DNA of 64,000 bases. Source: Myxococcota bacterium (GTDB lineage Bacteria > Myxococcota_A > UBA9160 > JAFDDA01). The DNA lies in assembly GCA_965228475.1 (NCBI GenBank), contig OZ245817.1, positions 3,360,001-3,424,000 on the forward strand, written 5' to 3'. Below the pieces are notes generated by a model that was not told the DNA's origin, did no database searches, and worked only from the letters and a program-made list of their open reading frames with translations. A program made the position numbers and the translations under genes. This document shows positions 15,869 to 38,639 of this stretch, one piece after another; the first letter of the stretch is position 1; every line of letters starts with the position of its first letter.

Positions 15869-15945
<77 letters not shown>

Positions 15946-18449: not shown

Positions 18450-18525
18450 TCCCCGGTAGCTCAGTTGGCAGAGCAAGCGGCTGTTAACCGCTGGGTCGTA
18501 GGTTCGAGTCCTACCCGGGGAGCCA
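18450..18525 (+). tRNA. tRNA-Asn (anticodon GTT)
   Basis: TCCCCGG acceptor stem, GCGG-CT-GTT-AA-CCGC anticodon arm, GGTTCGAGTCC, CCA; promoter TTGCAA-16-TAGAAT at 18396-18423. Confidence 0.98.
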
Positions 18526-32218: not shown

Positions 32219-33150
32219 GCGAGGAGAAGCTCGATGCGAGGACCGTCCGCGAGCTCGGGCGGCGCTACTCGAACTGGGGCCGCTGGGGCCCGGACGACGA
32301 GTTCGGCACGCTGAACCATCTGACCCCGGAGCGGGTGCTCGCCGCGACGAAGCTCCCGCGCAGCGGCGAGGTGTTCTCCCTCGGCCTGCCCTTCGAGGCG
32401 GACGGCCCGGCCCGCGGCCGCCGCTTCAATCCGATCCACACCATGCTCGTGGACGGCGGCGACGCCCAGGAGCACCCGGGCGGCTTTGGCTACGCAGACG
32501 ACGCCATCCACATGCCGACCCAGTGCGCGACCCAGTGGGACGCGCTCTCCCACGTCTTCTACGACGGGAAGATGTACAACGATCGCGACGCGGCGCTCGT
32601 CTCGAGCAGCGGCGCGGCCGCCAACGGCATCGAGAAGCTCGCCCGGGGCGTCGTCGGGCGCGGCGTGCTGCTCGACGTCGCGCGGCATCGCCGGGTCGGC
32701 CATCTCGAGGATGGGGAAGCCATCCTCCCGGAGGAGCTCGACGCCTGCGCCGAGGACCAGGGCGTGACGGTCGGGCCGGGCGACGTCGTTCTCGTCCGGA
32801 CGGGCAAGCTCGGACGGCATCGGAGCCAGGGTTCCTGGGACGGCTACGTCGGCCCGTCACCGGGGCTCTCGCTCCGCTGCGCGCGATGGCTCTTCGAGCG
32901 AGAGATCGCGGCGGTCGCCACCGATACGTTCTGCGTGGAGGTCCACCCCGCCGAGACACCGGACTGTGTCATGCCGCTCCACATGGTGAGCCTGCGCAAC
33001 ACCGGGCTCCTGCTCGGCGAGATGTTCGTGCTCGACGCCCTCGCCGAGGCCTGCGCGGCCGACGGCGACCACGCGTTCCTCTTCACCGCCCCGCCGCTCC
33101 CGATCACCGGCGGCGTCGGCTCGCCGATCAACCCCCTGGCGATCAAGTAG
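32215..33150 (+). CDS. Cyclase family (kynurenine formamidase-like) hydrolase
   Basis: SNWGRWGPDDEFGTLN, QCATQWDALSH, GRGVLLD, GSPINPLAIK. Confidence 0.9.
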   Translation: MSEEKLDARTVRELGRRYSNWGRWGPDDEFGTLNHLTPERVLAATKLPRSGEVFSLGLPFEADGPARGRRFNPIHTMLVDGGDAQEHPGGFGYADDAIHMPTQCATQWDALSHVFYDGKMYNDRDAALVSSSGAAANGIEKLARGVVGRGVLLDVARHRRVGHLEDGEAILPEELDACAEDQGVTVGPGDVVLVRTGKLGRHRSQGSWDGYVGPSPGLSLRCARWLFEREIAAVATDTFCVEVHPAETPDCVMPLHMVSLRNTGLLLGEMFVLDALAEACAADGDHAFLFTAPPLPITGGVGSPINPLAIK

Positions 33151-33221
33151 TGGCCGCCCGCCGACCTTCTCGCGGACGGGCCGCGGGCGCCGAGCCCCCT
33201 GCCCCGCCGGCGCCCCCGGAC

Positions 33222-35726
33222 ATGGGGCGCCTCCTCCAGCTCGCGCCGCTCTTCCTGCTCTCCGGGGCCAGCGCCCTGCTCGCCGAGACGGTCTGGCTGC
33301 GCTGGCTGCGCGATCTCCTCGGGGCAACGGCCCCGGCCGCCTCTGCGACCCTGCTCGCCTTCTTCGCGGGCCACGCCCTCGGCGCGCTCGTGGCGGCGCG
33401 CCTCGCACGCCGCTGGCGACGCCCGCTCCGCGCCTACGCGATCATCGAAGCGCTCGCGACGCTCGGCGTCCTCGCCGTCCCGGTCCTCCTCGGAATCGGC
33501 GAGGGCCTCATGGATGGCTCCTACGACGCCCTGCGCACGCAGCCGACGCTGCTCGTCGCCCTGCGCTTCGGCGTCGCACTCCTGGCCACGCTCCCGGCGT
33601 CGATCGCGTTCGGCGCGAGCTTCCCGGCCATCGGCGGCGCCGCGGCCCGGGAAGGCGGCCGGATCGGACGCGCCGGATCGATTCTCTACGCGGTGAACCT
33701 GCTCGGCGCCGCCGCGGGCGCCGCCGCGGGCGCGTTCTGGATCCCGGACGCCTTCGGCGTACGCGCCGCCTGGCTCTGCGGCGCCGTCCTCTCCGCCCTC
33801 GCGGCCGTCGGCGCGTTCGTGATCTCTGCGCGGGACGAACCCCGGGAACCGATCGCGGAGGGGGCCGACGCGGGATCGCTCGGGGCGGGCCCGCCCGCCC
33901 TCGCCGCCCTCTCGGGTTTCGGAACGCTGGCGAGCCAGGTCCTGCTCGTCCAGGCCTTCGCCCAGGTCATGAACCAATCCGTCTACGCGTTCGGGACGGT
34001 GCTGGTCGTCGTGCTCGGCGCCCTGGCCCTCGGCGCGGCCGCCGCCGCGGCCCTCGTACGGCGCGTCCATCCCGCTCCGCGGGCGGCGGGCTTCGTCGCG
34101 GTCGCCGCCGCGCTGACCCTCGTCGCCTTCCCCGGCTCGTTCTACGCGCTGAGCGACGGGCTCGAGTTCGCGGGCGTCGGTGCGCCCTGGCCCCGCTACC
34201 TCTTCGAGTGCCTCGGCATGGCGGCCCTCGGCGCCGGTCCGCTGCTCTTCGCGGGCGGCATGATCTTTCCGCTCTCGCTCTCCTGGGCGGCCGAGCGGCG
34301 GCCCGAGGCGGCGAGCGGCGACCTGCTCGGCAGGCTCGTCGTCGCGAACACGGCCGGGGCCATGGCGGGCGCACTCGCGGCACCCTACTGGCTGCTCCCG
34401 ACGCTCGGCCTCTGGGGCGCCTTCGCCGGCGTCGCGGGGGGCTACCTCGCCGCCGTGTTCCTGATCCCGGACCCGAACGACGGCGTGCGCCGCCTCCGGG
34501 TACTGGCCCTCGTCGCGGGCTGGGCCAGCTGCTTCTCCCTCGCTTCGCCCCTCGAAGTGCCCCAGATGCGCCTGGCCGAGGGGGAGACGGCAATCGAGGC
34601 GCGCACCACGCCGGGCGGCATCGTCGCGGTCATCGAGAGCCGCGGCGAGCGGCTCATCCGCACGGACAACCACTACTCCCTCGGCGGCACGGCGGAGATC
34701 GTCCACCAGGAACGCCAGGGGCACCTGCCCCTGCTCCTGCACCCGACCGCGCGCTCGGCGGTCCATGCCGGCTCGGCGAGCGGCATCAGCGCCGGCGCCC
34801 TGCTGGCCCACCCGCTCGAGCGGATCCACCTGGTGGAGATCCTCCCGGAGGTCGCCCGTGCCGGCGCGCGCCACTTCGCCGACGCCAACCGCGGCGTCCA
34901 CACGGACCCGCGCGTCGAGGTCGTCGTCGACGACGCGCGCAACTTCCTCGCGCGCACGAGCGAGCGCTTCGACGTCGTGATCGCGGACCTCTACGTCCCC
35001 TGGCGATCGGGAACCGCCGCGCTCTACACGCGCGAGCACTTCGAGGCGGTCCGGGAGCGGCTCGCACCGGGCGGGCTCTTCTGCCAGTGGCTCCCGCTCT
35101 ACCAGCTCGGGGGCGAGGAGTTCCACGTCATCCTCGCCACCTTCCTCGACGCCTTCCCGAACGCGGGCCTCTTCCGCGGGGATTTCTACGGCCGCTTCCC
35201 GATCGTCGCCCTGGTGGGCTGGCGGGATGCGCTGGCGAGCGCGGCGGCCGTCGAGGCCGCGGTGCGCCGACTCGCGGCGCGGGGCGAACGCGACCGCTGG
35301 GTGACCGACCCGGCCGGCTTCTGGAGCCTCTACGCGGGGGCCCTCGGCCCACTCGTGCCGTCCCTCGTCCCGACGCCGCGCAACACGACCGATCACCCGG
35401 CCCTGCAGTACCTCGCGGCCCGCAACCACCGCGGCGGAAGGGCCGGCCTCGCCGATCCCTACGTCGCGATCGAATGGCAGCGCTTCGTCGACGGCGTGCG
35501 CACGGCCTCGCTCACGGGAGACCCGCTCTTCCCGGGCCTCGGGCCCGAGGCCAAGCGCGCCTCGGCAGCGGGCGCGGCGCTCCAGATGGCCGGGGCGCTC
35601 TGGGTGGAGGGCCGGTCCGGGGAGGCGGCGCGGGCGCTCACCGTCGCTGCGGAGCTTCTTCCCCCGCACCTGCTCGCCCAGGCGGAAGCCGACCCGACGG
35701 CCGCGGAACTCTGGCCCGACGAATGA
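33222..35726 (+). CDS. Fused MFS-like membrane domain / spermidine-synthase-like methyltransferase
   Basis: LSGASALLAETVW, LYAVNLLGA, VEILPEV, DDARNFL, FDVVIAD, LAPGGLFCQWLP; alternative GTG start at 33150. Confidence 0.85.
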   Translation: MGRLLQLAPLFLLSGASALLAETVWLRWLRDLLGATAPAASATLLAFFAGHALGALVAARLARRWRRPLRAYAIIEALATLGVLAVPVLLGIGEGLMDGSYDALRTQPTLLVALRFGVALLATLPASIAFGASFPAIGGAAAREGGRIGRAGSILYAVNLLGAAAGAAAGAFWIPDAFGVRAAWLCGAVLSALAAVGAFVISARDEPREPIAEGADAGSLGAGPPALAALSGFGTLASQVLLVQAFAQVMNQSVYAFGTVLVVVLGALALGAAAAAALVRRVHPAPRAAGFVAVAAALTLVAFPGSFYALSDGLEFAGVGAPWPRYLFECLGMAALGAGPLLFAGGMIFPLSLSWAAERRPEAASGDLLGRLVVANTAGAMAGALAAPYWLLPTLGLWGAFAGVAGGYLAAVFLIPDPNDGVRRLRVLALVAGWASCFSLASPLEVPQMRLAEGETAIEARTTPGGIVAVIESRGERLIRTDNHYSLGGTAEIVHQERQGHLPLLLHPTARSAVHAGSASGISAGALLAHPLERIHLVEILPEVARAGARHFADANRGVHTDPRVEVVVDDARNFLARTSERFDVVIADLYVPWRSGTAALYTREHFEAVRERLAPGGLFCQWLPLYQLGGEEFHVILATFLDAFPNAGLFRGDFYGRFPIVALVGWRDALASAAAVEAAVRRLAARGERDRWVTDPAGFWSLYAGALGPLVPSLVPTPRNTTDHPALQYLAARNHRGGRAGLADPYVAIEWQRFVDGVRTASLTGDPLFPGLGPEAKRASAAGAALQMAGALWVEGRSGEAARALTVAAELLPPHLLAQAEADPTAAELWPDE

Positions 35727-35753: not shown

Positions 35754-37355
35754 TCAGCCCTTGATCCGGCTCGTCTCGCTCGCCCACTCCTTCTCGCGCA
35801 GGCGGAACTTCTGGATCTTGCCGGTGCTCGTCTTCGGCAGCTCGCCGAACTCGATGGCCTTCGGGCACTTGAAGTGGGCGAGGCGGTCGCGCGTGAACTC
35901 GATCAGCTCCGCCTCCGACAGGCTCGCGCCCTCGCGCAGGGTCACGAAAGCCTTGGGCACCTCGCCCCACTTCTCGTGGGGCATCGCGATCACCGCCGCT
36001 TCCAGGACGTCCGGGTGCTGCACGACGGTGTGCTCGACCTCGATCGTCGAGATGTTCTCCCCGCCGCTGATGATGATGTCCTTCTTGCGGTCGCGCAGCT
36101 CGATGTAGCCGTCGGGGTGGAGGACGCCGATGTCGCCCGAGTGGAACCAGCCGCCGCGGAAGGCCTCCTCGGTGGCCGGCTCGTCCTCGAAGTAGCCCTT
36201 CATCACGTTGTTCCCGCGCATGACCACCTCGCCCATGGTCTCCGCGTCGGCCGGCACGTCGTTCATCTCGGCGTCGACGACGCGCAGATGCGTGGCGTGG
36301 TGGAAGGGCACGCCCTGGCGCGCCAGGTACTGGGCCTTGGTCGGGATGTCGAGGGTCTCCCACTCGGGCTGGAGTTCACAGTAGACGTGGGGCCCGTAGG
36401 TCTCGGTGAGCCCGTAGAGGTGACAGATGCGGACGCCCATCTCTTCCATGCGCGCCAGCAGCGTCGGCGAAGGCGGTGCGCCGCCCGTGGCGACGCGGAT
36501 CTCGGGGTCGAAACGGATCCCCTCCGCTTCGGGTGCCTCGGCGAGCATGAGGAGCACCGTTGGCGCCCCGTTGAAGTGGGTGACCCGCTCCGCCTCGACG
36601 AGTTCGAGGATGCGCGGCGGGTCGACGGCCCGCAGCATCACGTGCTTGCCGCCGGCGCCGGTCACGGCCCACGGAAAGCACCAGCCGTTGCAGTGGAAGA
36701 GTGGCAGCGTCCACAGGAAGGTCGAGTCCCGCTCCAGCCGGTGGACGACCATCTCGCCGAGAGCGTTCAGCATGGCGCCGCGGTGGGTGTACATGACGCC
36801 CTTCGGGCGCCCCGTCGTTCCCGACGTGTAGTTGATCGAGAGGACGCGCTCCTCGTCGTCGAGGTCGTTCTGGATCGGGAGGACCTCGGCGCCTTCGACG
36901 AACTCGGTGTAGCGGGGGCCGTCGAGCGGCGTCCCGAGCACGCCCGCCTCCGGGTCCTCCACGTTCACGAGGGTCGGCCGCGCCGCCAGCGGCTCCGGGC
37001 CGTCGCTCACGCGGTCCGCGAGCTCCGGGTCCGCGAAGACGATCTTCGCGCCGGAGTGGTTCAGGATGTAGTTCACCTCGGCCGGGTTCAGCCGGGTATT
37101 GATCGCGACGAGCACGCCGCGCACCAGGGGCACGGCGAAGTGGGCGGCCAGCAGGGCCGGAACGTTCGGCGCCAGGAAGGCCACGCGGTCGCCCGGCTCG
37201 ACGCCAGCGCGAACGAGCGCACCCGCCAGCCGGCCGACCTCCCGGGCGAAGTCTTCGTAGCTCCAACGCAGGTCACCGTGGACGACCGCCGTCTTCTTCG
37301 GGAAGACGCGCAGGGTCCGCTCGAGCAGCACGATCGGGGAGAGTTCGTCTCGCAT
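35754..37355 (-). CDS. Acyl-CoA synthetase / AMP-binding protein
   Basis: YTSGTTGRPKG, FHCNGW, YGLTE, SGD, DRKKDIIISGGEN, PKTSTGKIQK. Confidence 0.95.
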   Translation of the reverse strand: MRDELSPIVLLERTLRVFPKKTAVVHGDLRWSYEDFAREVGRLAGALVRAGVEPGDRVAFLAPNVPALLAAHFAVPLVRGVLVAINTRLNPAEVNYILNHSGAKIVFADPELADRVSDGPEPLAARPTLVNVEDPEAGVLGTPLDGPRYTEFVEGAEVLPIQNDLDDEERVLSINYTSGTTGRPKGVMYTHRGAMLNALGEMVVHRLERDSTFLWTLPLFHCNGWCFPWAVTGAGGKHVMLRAVDPPRILELVEAERVTHFNGAPTVLLMLAEAPEAEGIRFDPEIRVATGGAPPSPTLLARMEEMGVRICHLYGLTETYGPHVYCELQPEWETLDIPTKAQYLARQGVPFHHATHLRVVDAEMNDVPADAETMGEVVMRGNNVMKGYFEDEPATEEAFRGGWFHSGDIGVLHPDGYIELRDRKKDIIISGGENISTIEVEHTVVQHPDVLEAAVIAMPHEKWGEVPKAFVTLREGASLSEAELIEFTRDRLAHFKCPKAIEFGELPKTSTGKIQKFRLREKEWASETSRIKG

Positions 37356-37391
37356 GCCGGGATCCTAGACTCTTGAGGGGGAGAGCCGGGC

Positions 37392-37446
37392 AAAAGAAAG
37401 CCCCGGAGGCGGTTTCAGCGGCTACGACGTCCGCACCTCCGGGGCC
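37392..37446 (-). terminator. Intrinsic terminator on the minus strand
   Basis: Minus strand GCCCCGGAGG...CCTCCGGGGC followed by TTTCTTTT. Confidence 0.8.
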
Positions 37447-37501
37447 GGTAGACTGGGAACAGCGTCCCAACCACACCTGGATCAAGGATTCGATGTGGCG
37501 T

Positions 37502-37546
37502 CTAGGACGCGTCCACCTCACTCGCCGTAGTTCTACATTGAGACAC
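37502..37546 (-). CDS. Putative 14-aa small ORF / leader peptide MSQCRTTASEVDAS
   Basis: GGAGGTGA SD (37551-37558), 4 nt, GTG; TAG within a hairpin; terminator downstream. Confidence 0.5.
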   Translation of the reverse strand: MSQCRTTASEVDAS

Positions 37547-37766
37547 CGAATCACCTCCATCCCGGCGTGGTCATTTTCCAGCGAGGCCCAGACCTCGCGT
37601 CGGAACCCGGGTGCGGGGCGGTCGCCGAGCCCGCCCCTCCGAGCTGCCCCGACCCGGCCCGCCCACTGCGAACCGTCCGGGACTCGGGGGTGAGTGAACC
37701 CCCTCACACGGCAACTTATCGGACGACCGGGGGAGGCGCGAGAACGGAATGCTAGACTGCGGCGCC

Positions 37767-38639
37767 ATGACGCAGCGCACCGAACCCTCTAACACCGCGA
37801 TTCTGCTGGTTTCTTGCCCCGATCGGCCGGGCATCGTCGCCGCCCTGGCACAGCTTCTTTACGGGCACGGCGCGAACATCCTGGCCGCCGATCAGCACAC
37901 GGACGCCGCCGCGGGCATGTTCTTCCAGCGCATCCGCTTCGACTACGCCGGTCTCCACACCGACCGGCAGACCCTCGAACGCGCCATCGCCGAGGTCGCG
38001 GAGCGCTTCGAGATGGACTTCGAGCTCTCCTACACGGGCCAGCCCAAGCGGGTGGCGATCTTCGTTTCGAAGTACGAGCACTGCCTCTACGACCTCCTCC
38101 TGCGTCACCGCTCCGGGGAGCTCGCCTGCGAGATCCCGCTGATCGTGAGCAACCATCCGGACCTCGCCCCCGTGGCCGAGGACTTCGGGCTCCCCTACCA
38201 CGTCTTCCCGATCACGCGGGAGACCAAGCGCGATCAGGAGAAGGCCGAGCTCGAACTCCTGCGCGAGCACGACGTCGACCTCGTGGTCATGGCCCGCTAC
38301 ATGCAGATCCTCTCCTCGGAATTCATCGACGAGATGCCGGGGCGCATCATCAACATCCATCACTCGTTCCTGCCCGCCTTCCAGGGCGGGAAGCCCTACC
38401 ACCAGGCGCTCGAGCGCGGCGTGAAGCTGATCGGCGCCACCGCCCACTACGCGACCACCGATCTCGACGAGGGCCCGATCATCGCCCAGGACGTCGTGCG
38501 GACCTCCCACCGCGATTCGGTGAAGGACCTGATCCGCAAGGGGCGCGACGTCGAGCGCACGGCCCTGGCGAGCGCCGTGCGCTGGCACCTCGAAGACCGG
38601 GTGATCGTCTTCCAGAACAAGACCGTCGTCTTCGCGTGA
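37767..38639 (+). CDS. purU: Formyltetrahydrofolate deformylase
   Basis: ACT domain CPDRPGIV, ARYMQILS, INIHHSFLPAF, DLDEGPII, NKTVVF. Confidence 0.97.
   Translation: MTQRTEPSNTAILLVSCPDRPGIVAALAQLLYGHGANILAADQHTDAAAGMFFQRIRFDYAGLHTDRQTLERAIAEVAERFEMDFELSYTGQPKRVAIFVSKYEHCLYDLLLRHRSGELACEIPLIVSNHPDLAPVAEDFGLPYHVFPITRETKRDQEKAELELLREHDVDLVVMARYMQILSSEFIDEMPGRIINIHHSFLPAFQGGKPYHQALERGVKLIGATAHYATTDLDEGPIIAQDVVRTSHRDSVKDLIRKGRDVERTALASAVRWHLEDRVIVFQNKTVVFA

Follow-up and report, generated by a model that had tools for sequence, protein, structure and literature searches.

Ms_IGR-5 is a small RNA (sRNA) family catalogued in Rfam as RF02471, "Actinobacteria sRNA". It was detected in S. lividans (PMC8079986), described in S. 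avermitilis as the transcription unit of an sRNA whose ends were mapped (PMC8780764), and associated with ribosome footprints on its homologs in M. abscessus and M. smegmatis (PMC4974804). IGR-5 of Mycobacterium smegmatis is ncMSMEG15794c, which is longer than initially described (PMC10454040). The literature searched by family name, accession, and locus name described only the detection of Ms_IGR-5, with no function assigned. Here, we analyzed an RNA encoded on the minus strand of a 64,000-nucleotide (nt) stretch of a Myxococcota genome (contig OZ245817.1 of assembly GCA_965228475.1, forward-strand positions 3,360,001 to 3,424,000), called the window hereafter. For this RNA (37392..37707, minus strand, ~315 nt, its ends predicted from BLAST conservation and alignments), no relevant described equivalent was found in the literature searched. 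We consider that it is probably a stand-alone gene for a structured, translated, and self-pairing RNA, whose working state would be set by the loading and transit of ribosomes, independently of the peptide sequence.

The RNA was compared with 4227 Rfam models, using permissive settings over 37250-37850. Positions 1-184 of the RF02471 model were aligned, untruncated, to 37568-37392, the 3′ 177 nt of the RNA, with 33.5 bits and an E-value of 6.1e-6. The gathering score of this family, 45 bits, was not reached, and the region had no Rfam match at gathering score. No other model showed an E-value below 0.9 over the 37250-37850 interval, in which no known riboswitch or cis-element matched. An earlier annotation from the letters alone (the sequence-only reading) had recognized neither 6S RNA nor a named riboswitch. 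That reading had also held that a hit to a known Rfam family would speak against it; none was found at gathering score, whereas a sub-threshold match over the full length of RF02471 was. Among 151 genomes of the class, 25 likewise gave full-length (1-184) sub-threshold matches of 22-38 bits, 16 of them being among the 32 genomes of a sister order, and none of the 151 passed the cut-off.

Conservation and predicted fold of the RNA

The RNA lies in the gap between the gene of an AMP-binding acyl-CoA synthetase (35754-37355, minus strand) and purU (plus strand). BLAST with the whole gap found matches in 38 of 41 genomes, namely its own and 40 relatives from 12 families of one order, with 66-84% identity over ~290 nt. 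The conserved part was query 45-331, which corresponds to 37704-37418 of the window, indicating that the RNA is ~300 nt and longer than the Rfam model. It is present as a single copy in its genome. Alignments were made of 30 copies and of 29 trimmed copies (A1), from which the copy at L013, cut by a contig end, was dropped (loci are given as L numbers). The aligned copies had in common a TAnnnT word at a fixed distance, four 5′ hairpins, GGAGGT, an open reading frame (ORF), and a terminator, and the sister-order copies showed the same 5′ domain and promoter layout.

Pairing was scored on A1 with a hand-built model of 83 base pairs. The model was 90.3% paired in the alignment, compared with 40-46% when it was slid along the columns. 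Pairs that changed on both sides numbered 32 of 83, compared with 18.8 ± 2.3 in shuffles, and 0 of 500 shuffles reached 32. The well-supported helices were hairpins 1, 2, and 4, the helix ACGCCGAGAC/GUCUCGGUGU flanking the Shine-Dalgarno (SD) word, and the terminator stem. The RNA is conserved over the whole class and its pairs covary, indicating an element far beyond chance. The −10 box, three GC hairpins, SD word, GTG-started ORF, stop-codon hairpin, and terminator listed by the sequence-only reading were all located at the minus-strand places it had given.

Read from its 5′ side, the RNA is preceded by the −10 box TAAGTT (37713..37718). A TAnnnT word in the same alignment columns, 12-18 nt before the loop of hairpin 1, was found in 25 of the 26 sequences scored by script; four more show the word by eye in the alignment, and the extract of L025 was too short. 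Hairpin 1, GGGGG-UUCACUCA-CCCCC (37686..37703), had 92% of its cells paired and four of six pairs changing on both sides, and its loop, (C/U)UCACUC, was near-invariant. Hairpin 2 (37646..37683), drawn from the minimum-free-energy structure, is variable in sequence and length, with seven of nine pairs changing on both sides. Hairpin 3 (37605..37644) contains the nested stem GGGGCGG...CCGCCCC and the invariant loop word CGGCG; it was 75.9% paired, and three of seven pairs changed on both sides. Hairpin 4, GCGAGGU-CUGG-GCCUCGC (37581..37598), has the conserved loop word CUGGG, showed double-sided changes in four of six pairs and a z-score of −3.2, and is also present in the sister order.

Downstream of the ORF start, the stop-codon hairpin (37498..37510) was 87.5% paired with no covariation. 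A GGGA...UCCC hairpin (37455..37468) was 96.6% paired, and its 5′ arm, GGGACGC, is an alternative partner of the stop-codon region. This alternative, GCGUCCU in the stop region with GGGACGC at 37462-37468, 40 nt downstream, was 98% paired, and two of its pairs changed on both sides, with compensatory changes in L008, L027, and L030. A local CCGA/UCGG hairpin, which likewise covaries, is in competition with a part of the ACGCCGAGAC/GUCUCGGUGU helix, with which it has columns 300-303 in common; from the alignment, the two may represent alternative folds or a loop-strand pseudoknot. The terminator stem with its inner hairpin (37399..37446) had six of ten pairs changing on both sides, and the stem is followed by the U-tract UUUCUUUU (37392..37399), which ends at 37392. 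In most aligned sequences, a U-rich tail follows the stem.

The predicted energy of the whole 318 nt was −161.4 kcal/mol (z-score −2.92; 1 of 100 shuffles was as good), and that of the terminator was −32 kcal/mol (z-score −3.84; 0 of 200 shuffles). Hairpin 1 (z-score −1.5), the GGGGCGG hairpin (0.07), and the stop hairpin (−1.0) were singly no better than shuffles. As these three hairpins by themselves resembled shuffles, the structural case rests on conservation and on covariation in the relatives. A simple consensus scan for promoters and terminators over 37200-37900 found nothing, because the −35 region is weak and the terminator has a branched loop.

The RNA libraries of three studies contained contigs, most of them from relatives, that matched 37418-37703. 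None of these contigs covered purU, and they stop near 37696-37703, which we do not take as a sign of the transcript ends. Among them, a 289-nt contig matched 37418-37696, and an identical 161-nt contig matched 37434-37594, although the RNA nature of that latter run is a guess. These contigs are compatible with an abundant transcript and with the predicted ends.

The 14-codon reading frame and its pairing with the terminator loop

The RNA carries the SD word GGAGGUGAUUC (37548..37558), in which GGAGGT was invariant in 29 of 29 aligned sequences. Within this region, GGAGGTGA occupies 37558-37551, and the perfect SD match is 9 nt. Against the 3′ end of the 16S rRNA of its own genome (...GGATCACCTCCTTTCT), the word can form 11 consecutive pairs, one of which is G-U. 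The word GGAGGTGAT has a single occurrence in the window and 70 in the 5.0-Mb genome. The SD word is followed by a 14-codon ORF (37502..37546) with a GTG start, the sequence MSQCRTTASEVDAS, and a TAG stop at 37504-37502; its translation from the second codon is SQCRTTASEVDAS*. Codons 10-12 contain an internal SD-like word, GAGGUGG (37513..37519), 5 nt before the last sense codon, for which a role is proposed below. GAGGTG was invariant in both orders and GAGGTGG was kept in most copies; the word is also printed in upper case in the Rfam consensus.

Conservation of the frame was analyzed in a set selected by a filter blind to the open frame. Of 174 loci, 95 combined an SD-like word with GAGGTG located 28-52 nt beyond it and with words resembling those of the terminator; these 95 gave 79 distinct units. 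In all 79, a start codon 3-14 nt past the SD core opened the frame, and a stop codon closed it. The length was 14 codons in 75 units, 15 in three, and 20 in one. The start was GTG in 57, TTG in 12, and ATG in 10, while the stop was TAG in 46, TGA in 25, and TAA in 8. Stops interrupted the +2 frame in 74 of the 79 units and the +1 frame in 36. Insertions in the ORF came in threes (L009, L015, L019, and L022), so that length variants differed by whole codons. The SD core reads GGGGG(A/T) in place of GGAGG at four loci (L056, L076, L086, and L153), at which the 14-codon frame is kept. The peptide residues 2-5 varied freely. Residues 6-14 were fairly constant (T-T/V-A/T-S-E-V-A/V-A/T-S), and these coincide with nucleotides fixed by pairing or by GAGGUGG, with almost no synonymous change. 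These patterns lead us to conclude that selection has kept a frame of fixed length translated, which does not imply that the peptide sequence is important.

The pairing that fixes these nucleotides is a predicted pseudoknot. The sequence-only reading had claimed that a coding segment is complementary to a segment in the terminator loop, and the alignment substantiated this. CTACGGCG (37530-37523) is complementary to CGTCGTAG (37429-37422) with one G-U pair; at the RNA level, the ORF strand CUACGGCG, nt +17 to +24 of the ORF in codons 6-8 (37523..37530), would pair with the inner loop word CGUCGUAG (37422..37429) of the small hairpin inside the terminator. The two strands were complementary in 29 of 29 sequences, with a G-U pair in the window and L018 and a compensatory change in L026. 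The window's order carries CUACGGCG with CGCCGUAG, L026 carries CUACGACG with CGUCGUAG, and the sister order carries CGGUGACG with CGUCACCG, or CAGUGAC with GUCACUG. A third version, UGGACA in the ORF with UGUCCA in the equivalent loop, was read from the printed Rfam consensus. In each of the 79 distinct units, 7 nt or more of the ORF word were complementary to the sequence downstream of it in the same unit, and in 69 the match reached 8 nt; in the cross-type control, such a complement of at least 7 nt was present in 164 of 1954 combinations, with 8 nt in 46. The predicted ORF-to-loop pairing thus keeps its complementarity although its sequence differs entirely between the two orders. A further complementarity, between the hairpin-1 loop CUCACUC and GAGUGAG in the ORF, was 96.6% paired, with both sides near-invariant.

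Since the 3′ half of the ORF is frozen at the nucleotide level, the RNA could be an untranslated regulator, in which the SD word and "ORF" would be structural or binding elements, for instance a decoy that captures the 16S tail or a protein, and the frame would be open only incidentally. The freedom of residues 2-5 agrees with this, and the conserved single-stranded words CUCACUC, CGCCGUAG, and GAGGUGG are all explicable at the RNA level. However, the position of the start was fixed while its codon switched between GTG, TTG, and ATG, the in-frame stop was kept while switching between TAG, TGA, and TAA, and the length changed only by whole codons. The frame was open in all 79 units, whereas 74 had stops in the +2 frame, and ribosome footprints on the actinobacterial homologs are reported (PMC4974804). 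We consider an untranslated RNA unlikely.

The same frame, with its strong SD word and fairly constant residues 6-14, could belong to an ordinary small-protein gene, whose 14-residue peptide would be the active product and whose fold would merely tune synthesis. The constant residues, however, are encoded by nucleotides that are fixed by RNA pairing and lack synonymous changes, and the sister-order peptide (e.g., MKKFETVTREVVTI) differs exactly where the pairing partner has changed. The frame in the Rfam consensus reads differently and has 12 codons. Moreover, ~270 of the 315 nt are non-coding, yet they are conserved and covarying. A gene working through its peptide is thus regarded as quite improbable. 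A type I toxin mRNA was rejected, as the peptide MSQCRTTASEVDAS is short and polar and not a hydrophobic membrane peptide; an antisense RNA was not sought.

Neighboring genes and spread of the RNA

The synthetase gene follows the RNA on the same strand, and its ATG (37355) is 36 nt past the U-tract. In the window's order, 17 of 30 loci have an ortholog of it in this place and orientation, compared with none of the 15 sister-order loci. The sequence-only reading had offered, as one of two options, that the RNA is a ribosome-controlled transcription attenuator of this gene, such that translation of the 14 codons would decide on the formation of the terminator. The short distance, the 17 loci, the complementarity of the ORF to a sequence inside the terminator, and an RNA-library contig that bridges the terminator (X2) would suit such a role. 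Conversely, 13 of the 30 loci and all 15 of the sister order lack a synthetase downstream, L010, L012, and L026 have a convergent gene there, and the distance from the RNA to the synthetase gene varies between about 24 and 500 nt. The partner of the ORF is the inner loop, and the terminator arms pair only with each other, indicating that no antiterminator would be formed. Family members elsewhere are described as sRNA units (PMC8780764).

The synthetase gene also shows a candidate promoter of its own. A −10-like word, TAGGAT (37362..37367, minus strand), is located outside the RNA, 6 nt before the ATG. Of the 17 synthetase genes that follow the RNA, 14 have such a word (TATACT, TATAAT, TAGGAT, and similar ones) 6-9 nt ahead of an ATG or GTG; it is more distant from the predicted start in L014 and L020, and L003 has none. 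This arrangement suggests a separate promoter and a leaderless mRNA for these synthetase genes, including that in the window. Attenuation as a general function was rejected on the basis of the turnover of neighbors, the −10 words of the synthetase genes, and the inner-loop pairing, and we regard it as a very unlikely function of this RNA. Some read-through into the synthetase gene is possible in this genome, given contig X2.

The other option of the sequence-only reading, a stand-alone sRNA or micropeptide gene, agrees with the results, because the RNA has its own conserved −10 box and terminator, is present as a single copy, is kept where its neighbors change, and contains a conserved ORF. 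The neighborhood was conserved within each order and different between the two. In the sister order (L031-L055), the neighbors include a class II aldolase in at least nine of 15 loci and an MGH1-like glycoside hydrolase in at least six of 15.

On its other side, the RNA is divergent from purU, whose product has ACT and formyl-transferase domains. The start of purU is probably ATG 37767 rather than the first ATG, 37749; the 410-bp gap given by the sequence-only reading fits the former. TAGACT (37753-37758) is located 8 nt before the purU ATG, and it or TAGAAT/TACACT is present at the equivalent place in most relatives. This word looks like the purU −10 box, which would give a leaderless purU mRNA transcribed back to back with the RNA promoter. 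The −35 region of the RNA (~37736-37746) is ~10-30 nt from the TAGACT and ATG of purU, and 26 of the 30 loci in the window's order have purU divergent and adjacent upstream of the RNA. The RNA could, on this basis, be a regulator of purU, its transcription setting that of purU via promoter competition. Yet purU was nearby in none of the 15 sister-order loci, nor in L011, L012, and L025, where the RNA is fully conserved, and promoter competition needs neither a covarying 315-nt fold nor an ORF. We therefore give this explanation hardly any credence.

As for the remaining features of the surroundings, a frame of 1067 residues (32523-35726, plus strand) combines MFS transporter and spermidine-synthase-like domains, and a frame of 941 residues opposite to it showed no family match. 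The only Rfam matches of the window at gathering score were the signal recognition particle RNA and two tRNA genes (1151-1251, 15869-15942, and 18450-18522, plus strand).

The spread of the RNA was analyzed by an exact scan of named genomes for the 17-nt core word of the ORF, which gave at least 119 loci; among the matches listed, ~96 had the SD-ORF unit and 23 were chance matches in unrelated taxa. Among these matches, most carriers were titled Myxococcota, Myxococcales, or Deltaproteobacteria metagenome-assembled genomes (MAGs) by their depositors. By these titles, the host lineage of the RNA is not actinobacterial. Twelve of the carriers listed (L064, L065, L067, L071, L089, L092, L099, L111, L124, L132, L150, and L167) bear the depositor titles Nitrospirae or Nitrospirota; their peptide is MGSTNPTASEVAAS or a close variant such as MGSSINPTASEVAAS, and their SD region resembles that of the sister order. 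Thirteen others listed are titled "uncultured Spirochaetales" or "Spirochaetaceae", and the label "uncultured Spirochaetales" is probably wrong for L080, L116, and L117, which seem to be of the window's own order. Carriers labeled Gemmatimonadota and Alphaproteobacteria, again by depositor title only, are also present. The spread beyond Myxococcota and Actinomycetota is a lead that rests on depositor titles only.

Proposed working of the RNA and comparison with known systems

The stand-alone reading favored here leads to the following proposal. Transcription would begin from a sigma-70-type promoter belonging to the RNA itself (−10 box at 37718-37713) and would stop at its own intrinsic terminator (37392). 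Ribosomes would then load on the SD word via up to 11 pairs with the 16S tail. From general knowledge of ribosome footprints, the pseudoknot would be placed at the entrance of the mRNA channel when an initiating ribosome occupies the start codon. Reading of the 14 codons would unwind both the pseudoknot and the stop-region helix. With the ribosome at the stop codon, the internal GAGGUGG would be at SD spacing, as 5 nt separate it from the last sense codon. The active shape of the RNA would accordingly depend on the loading and transit of ribosomes.

Several points weigh against this proposal. The match to RF02471 is below the curators' threshold. The codons ACT ACG GCG AGT GAG GTG were almost invariant, third positions included; in the 29 aligned sequences, the exceptions were L007, L014, and L020 (GCG to GTG, three of 29) and L026 (ACG GCG to ACG ACG). 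Such freezing indicates selection on the RNA, so that this stretch cannot show coding selection. Since only 12 nt of the ORF are free to vary, the open frame is a weaker test than 79 of 79 suggests, and the 79 copies are related to one another. The hairpin-1 loop would pair with the ORF through invariant strands, and this pairing is broken in L009 and L029 (CUAACUC) and in L027. A helix that would hide the SD word and start, GGUGAUUCGG with CCGAAUCGCC, was rejected, being 79% paired with covariation no better than shuffles. The RNA-library contigs are mostly from relatives and show neither starts, ends, nor strand. Contig X2 (37287-37530), which is from a relative and has five differences and eight gapped letters, bridges the terminator and reaches 70 nt into the synthetase gene, possibly through read-through or DNA carry-over. 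Finally, the steps of the mechanism past "translated and self-paired" are ones that we infer.

A broader proposal, which we put forward as doubtful, places the RNA in an ancient class of RNAs operated by ribosomes that occurs across phyla (Myxococcota, Actinomycetota as Ms_IGR-5, and perhaps the Nitrospirota-labeled MAGs). Its strong SD word, pseudoknot, and second SD-like word would together let it serve as a meter, or buffer, for free ribosomes or for the capacity to initiate. The product of such a meter would be a ribosome-dependent change of shape, not a peptide. The four-hairpin 5′ domain with its invariant loops could be a sensor, and the position beside purU, which sets the formyl-folate pool for formylation of the initiator tRNA, could reflect a link to translation initiation.

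The RNA has been missed by standard annotation, because it is below the Rfam threshold and its phylum is outside the name of the family, yet it is among the best-conserved non-coding stretches of its lineage. Its detection extends a catalogued "actinobacterial" sRNA to uncultured Myxococcota, indicating that the Ms_IGR-5 family may be older and wider than catalogued. The three covarying versions of the ORF-to-loop pairing provide a concrete and testable design, in which a translated mini-frame is the core of the fold, and they open a route towards a function for Ms_IGR-5, hitherto detected but unexplained in the literature searched. Caution is also advised in labeling the frame as no more than a micropeptide gene or the RNA as a leader of the synthetase gene.

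Dual-function sRNAs such as SgrS/SgrT and RNAIII/hld combine a structured regulatory RNA with a translated small frame. In contrast to these, the frame described here is the core of the fold, and its peptide is only loosely conserved. Leader-peptide attenuators of the trp/his type resemble the RNA in having a short frame that precedes an intrinsic terminator and is complementary to a segment further on. However, the window RNA has neither a terminator/antiterminator alternative nor a run of regulatory codons, and the gene downstream of it is not constant and has a putative promoter of its own. Ms1/6S RNA, which binds RNA polymerase, was considered because of its size (~180-300 nt) and the neighboring folate gene; the window RNA is similar in size, is read as a stand-alone gene, and has a folate-gene neighbor, and 6S RNA adjoins ygfA in many bacteria (PMC9130861). 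This candidate was rejected on the neighborhood and the fold, and neither the gathering-score search nor the permissive one gave a match to such a family in the region. The HAD-IB hydrolase and oxidoreductase neighborhood of Ms1 is absent from the window locus, where the neighbors are purU and the AMP-binding enzyme; the predicted fold is a row of hairpins with a pseudoknot and not a rod with a central bubble; and, unlike 6S and Ms1, the RNA carries an SD word and an ORF.

Ms_IGR-5 is the closest of the known systems. The window RNA differs from it in having 14 codons, compared with 12 read from the Rfam consensus, whose frame reads differently, and in its pseudoknot sequence. It also has an additional conserved 5′ domain of ~130 nt with four hairpins, found throughout the class, and its carriers are titled Myxococcota or Deltaproteobacteria, whereas Ms_IGR-5 is named for Actinobacteria. 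On the other hand, the window RNA is colinear end to end with the 184-position model and has the same order of elements, in which a 5′ SD word is followed by a short frame that contains GUGAGGUG and is closed by an in-frame stop, and then by hairpins and a branched terminator. The complementarity of the ORF to the inner loop is also common to both (UGGACA/UGUCCA in the consensus); it is outside the structure line of Rfam, and its actinobacterial side was read from the consensus only. On the sequence and predicted fold, we read the RNA as a 5′-extended and previously unrecognized branch, or distant member, of the Ms_IGR-5 kind.

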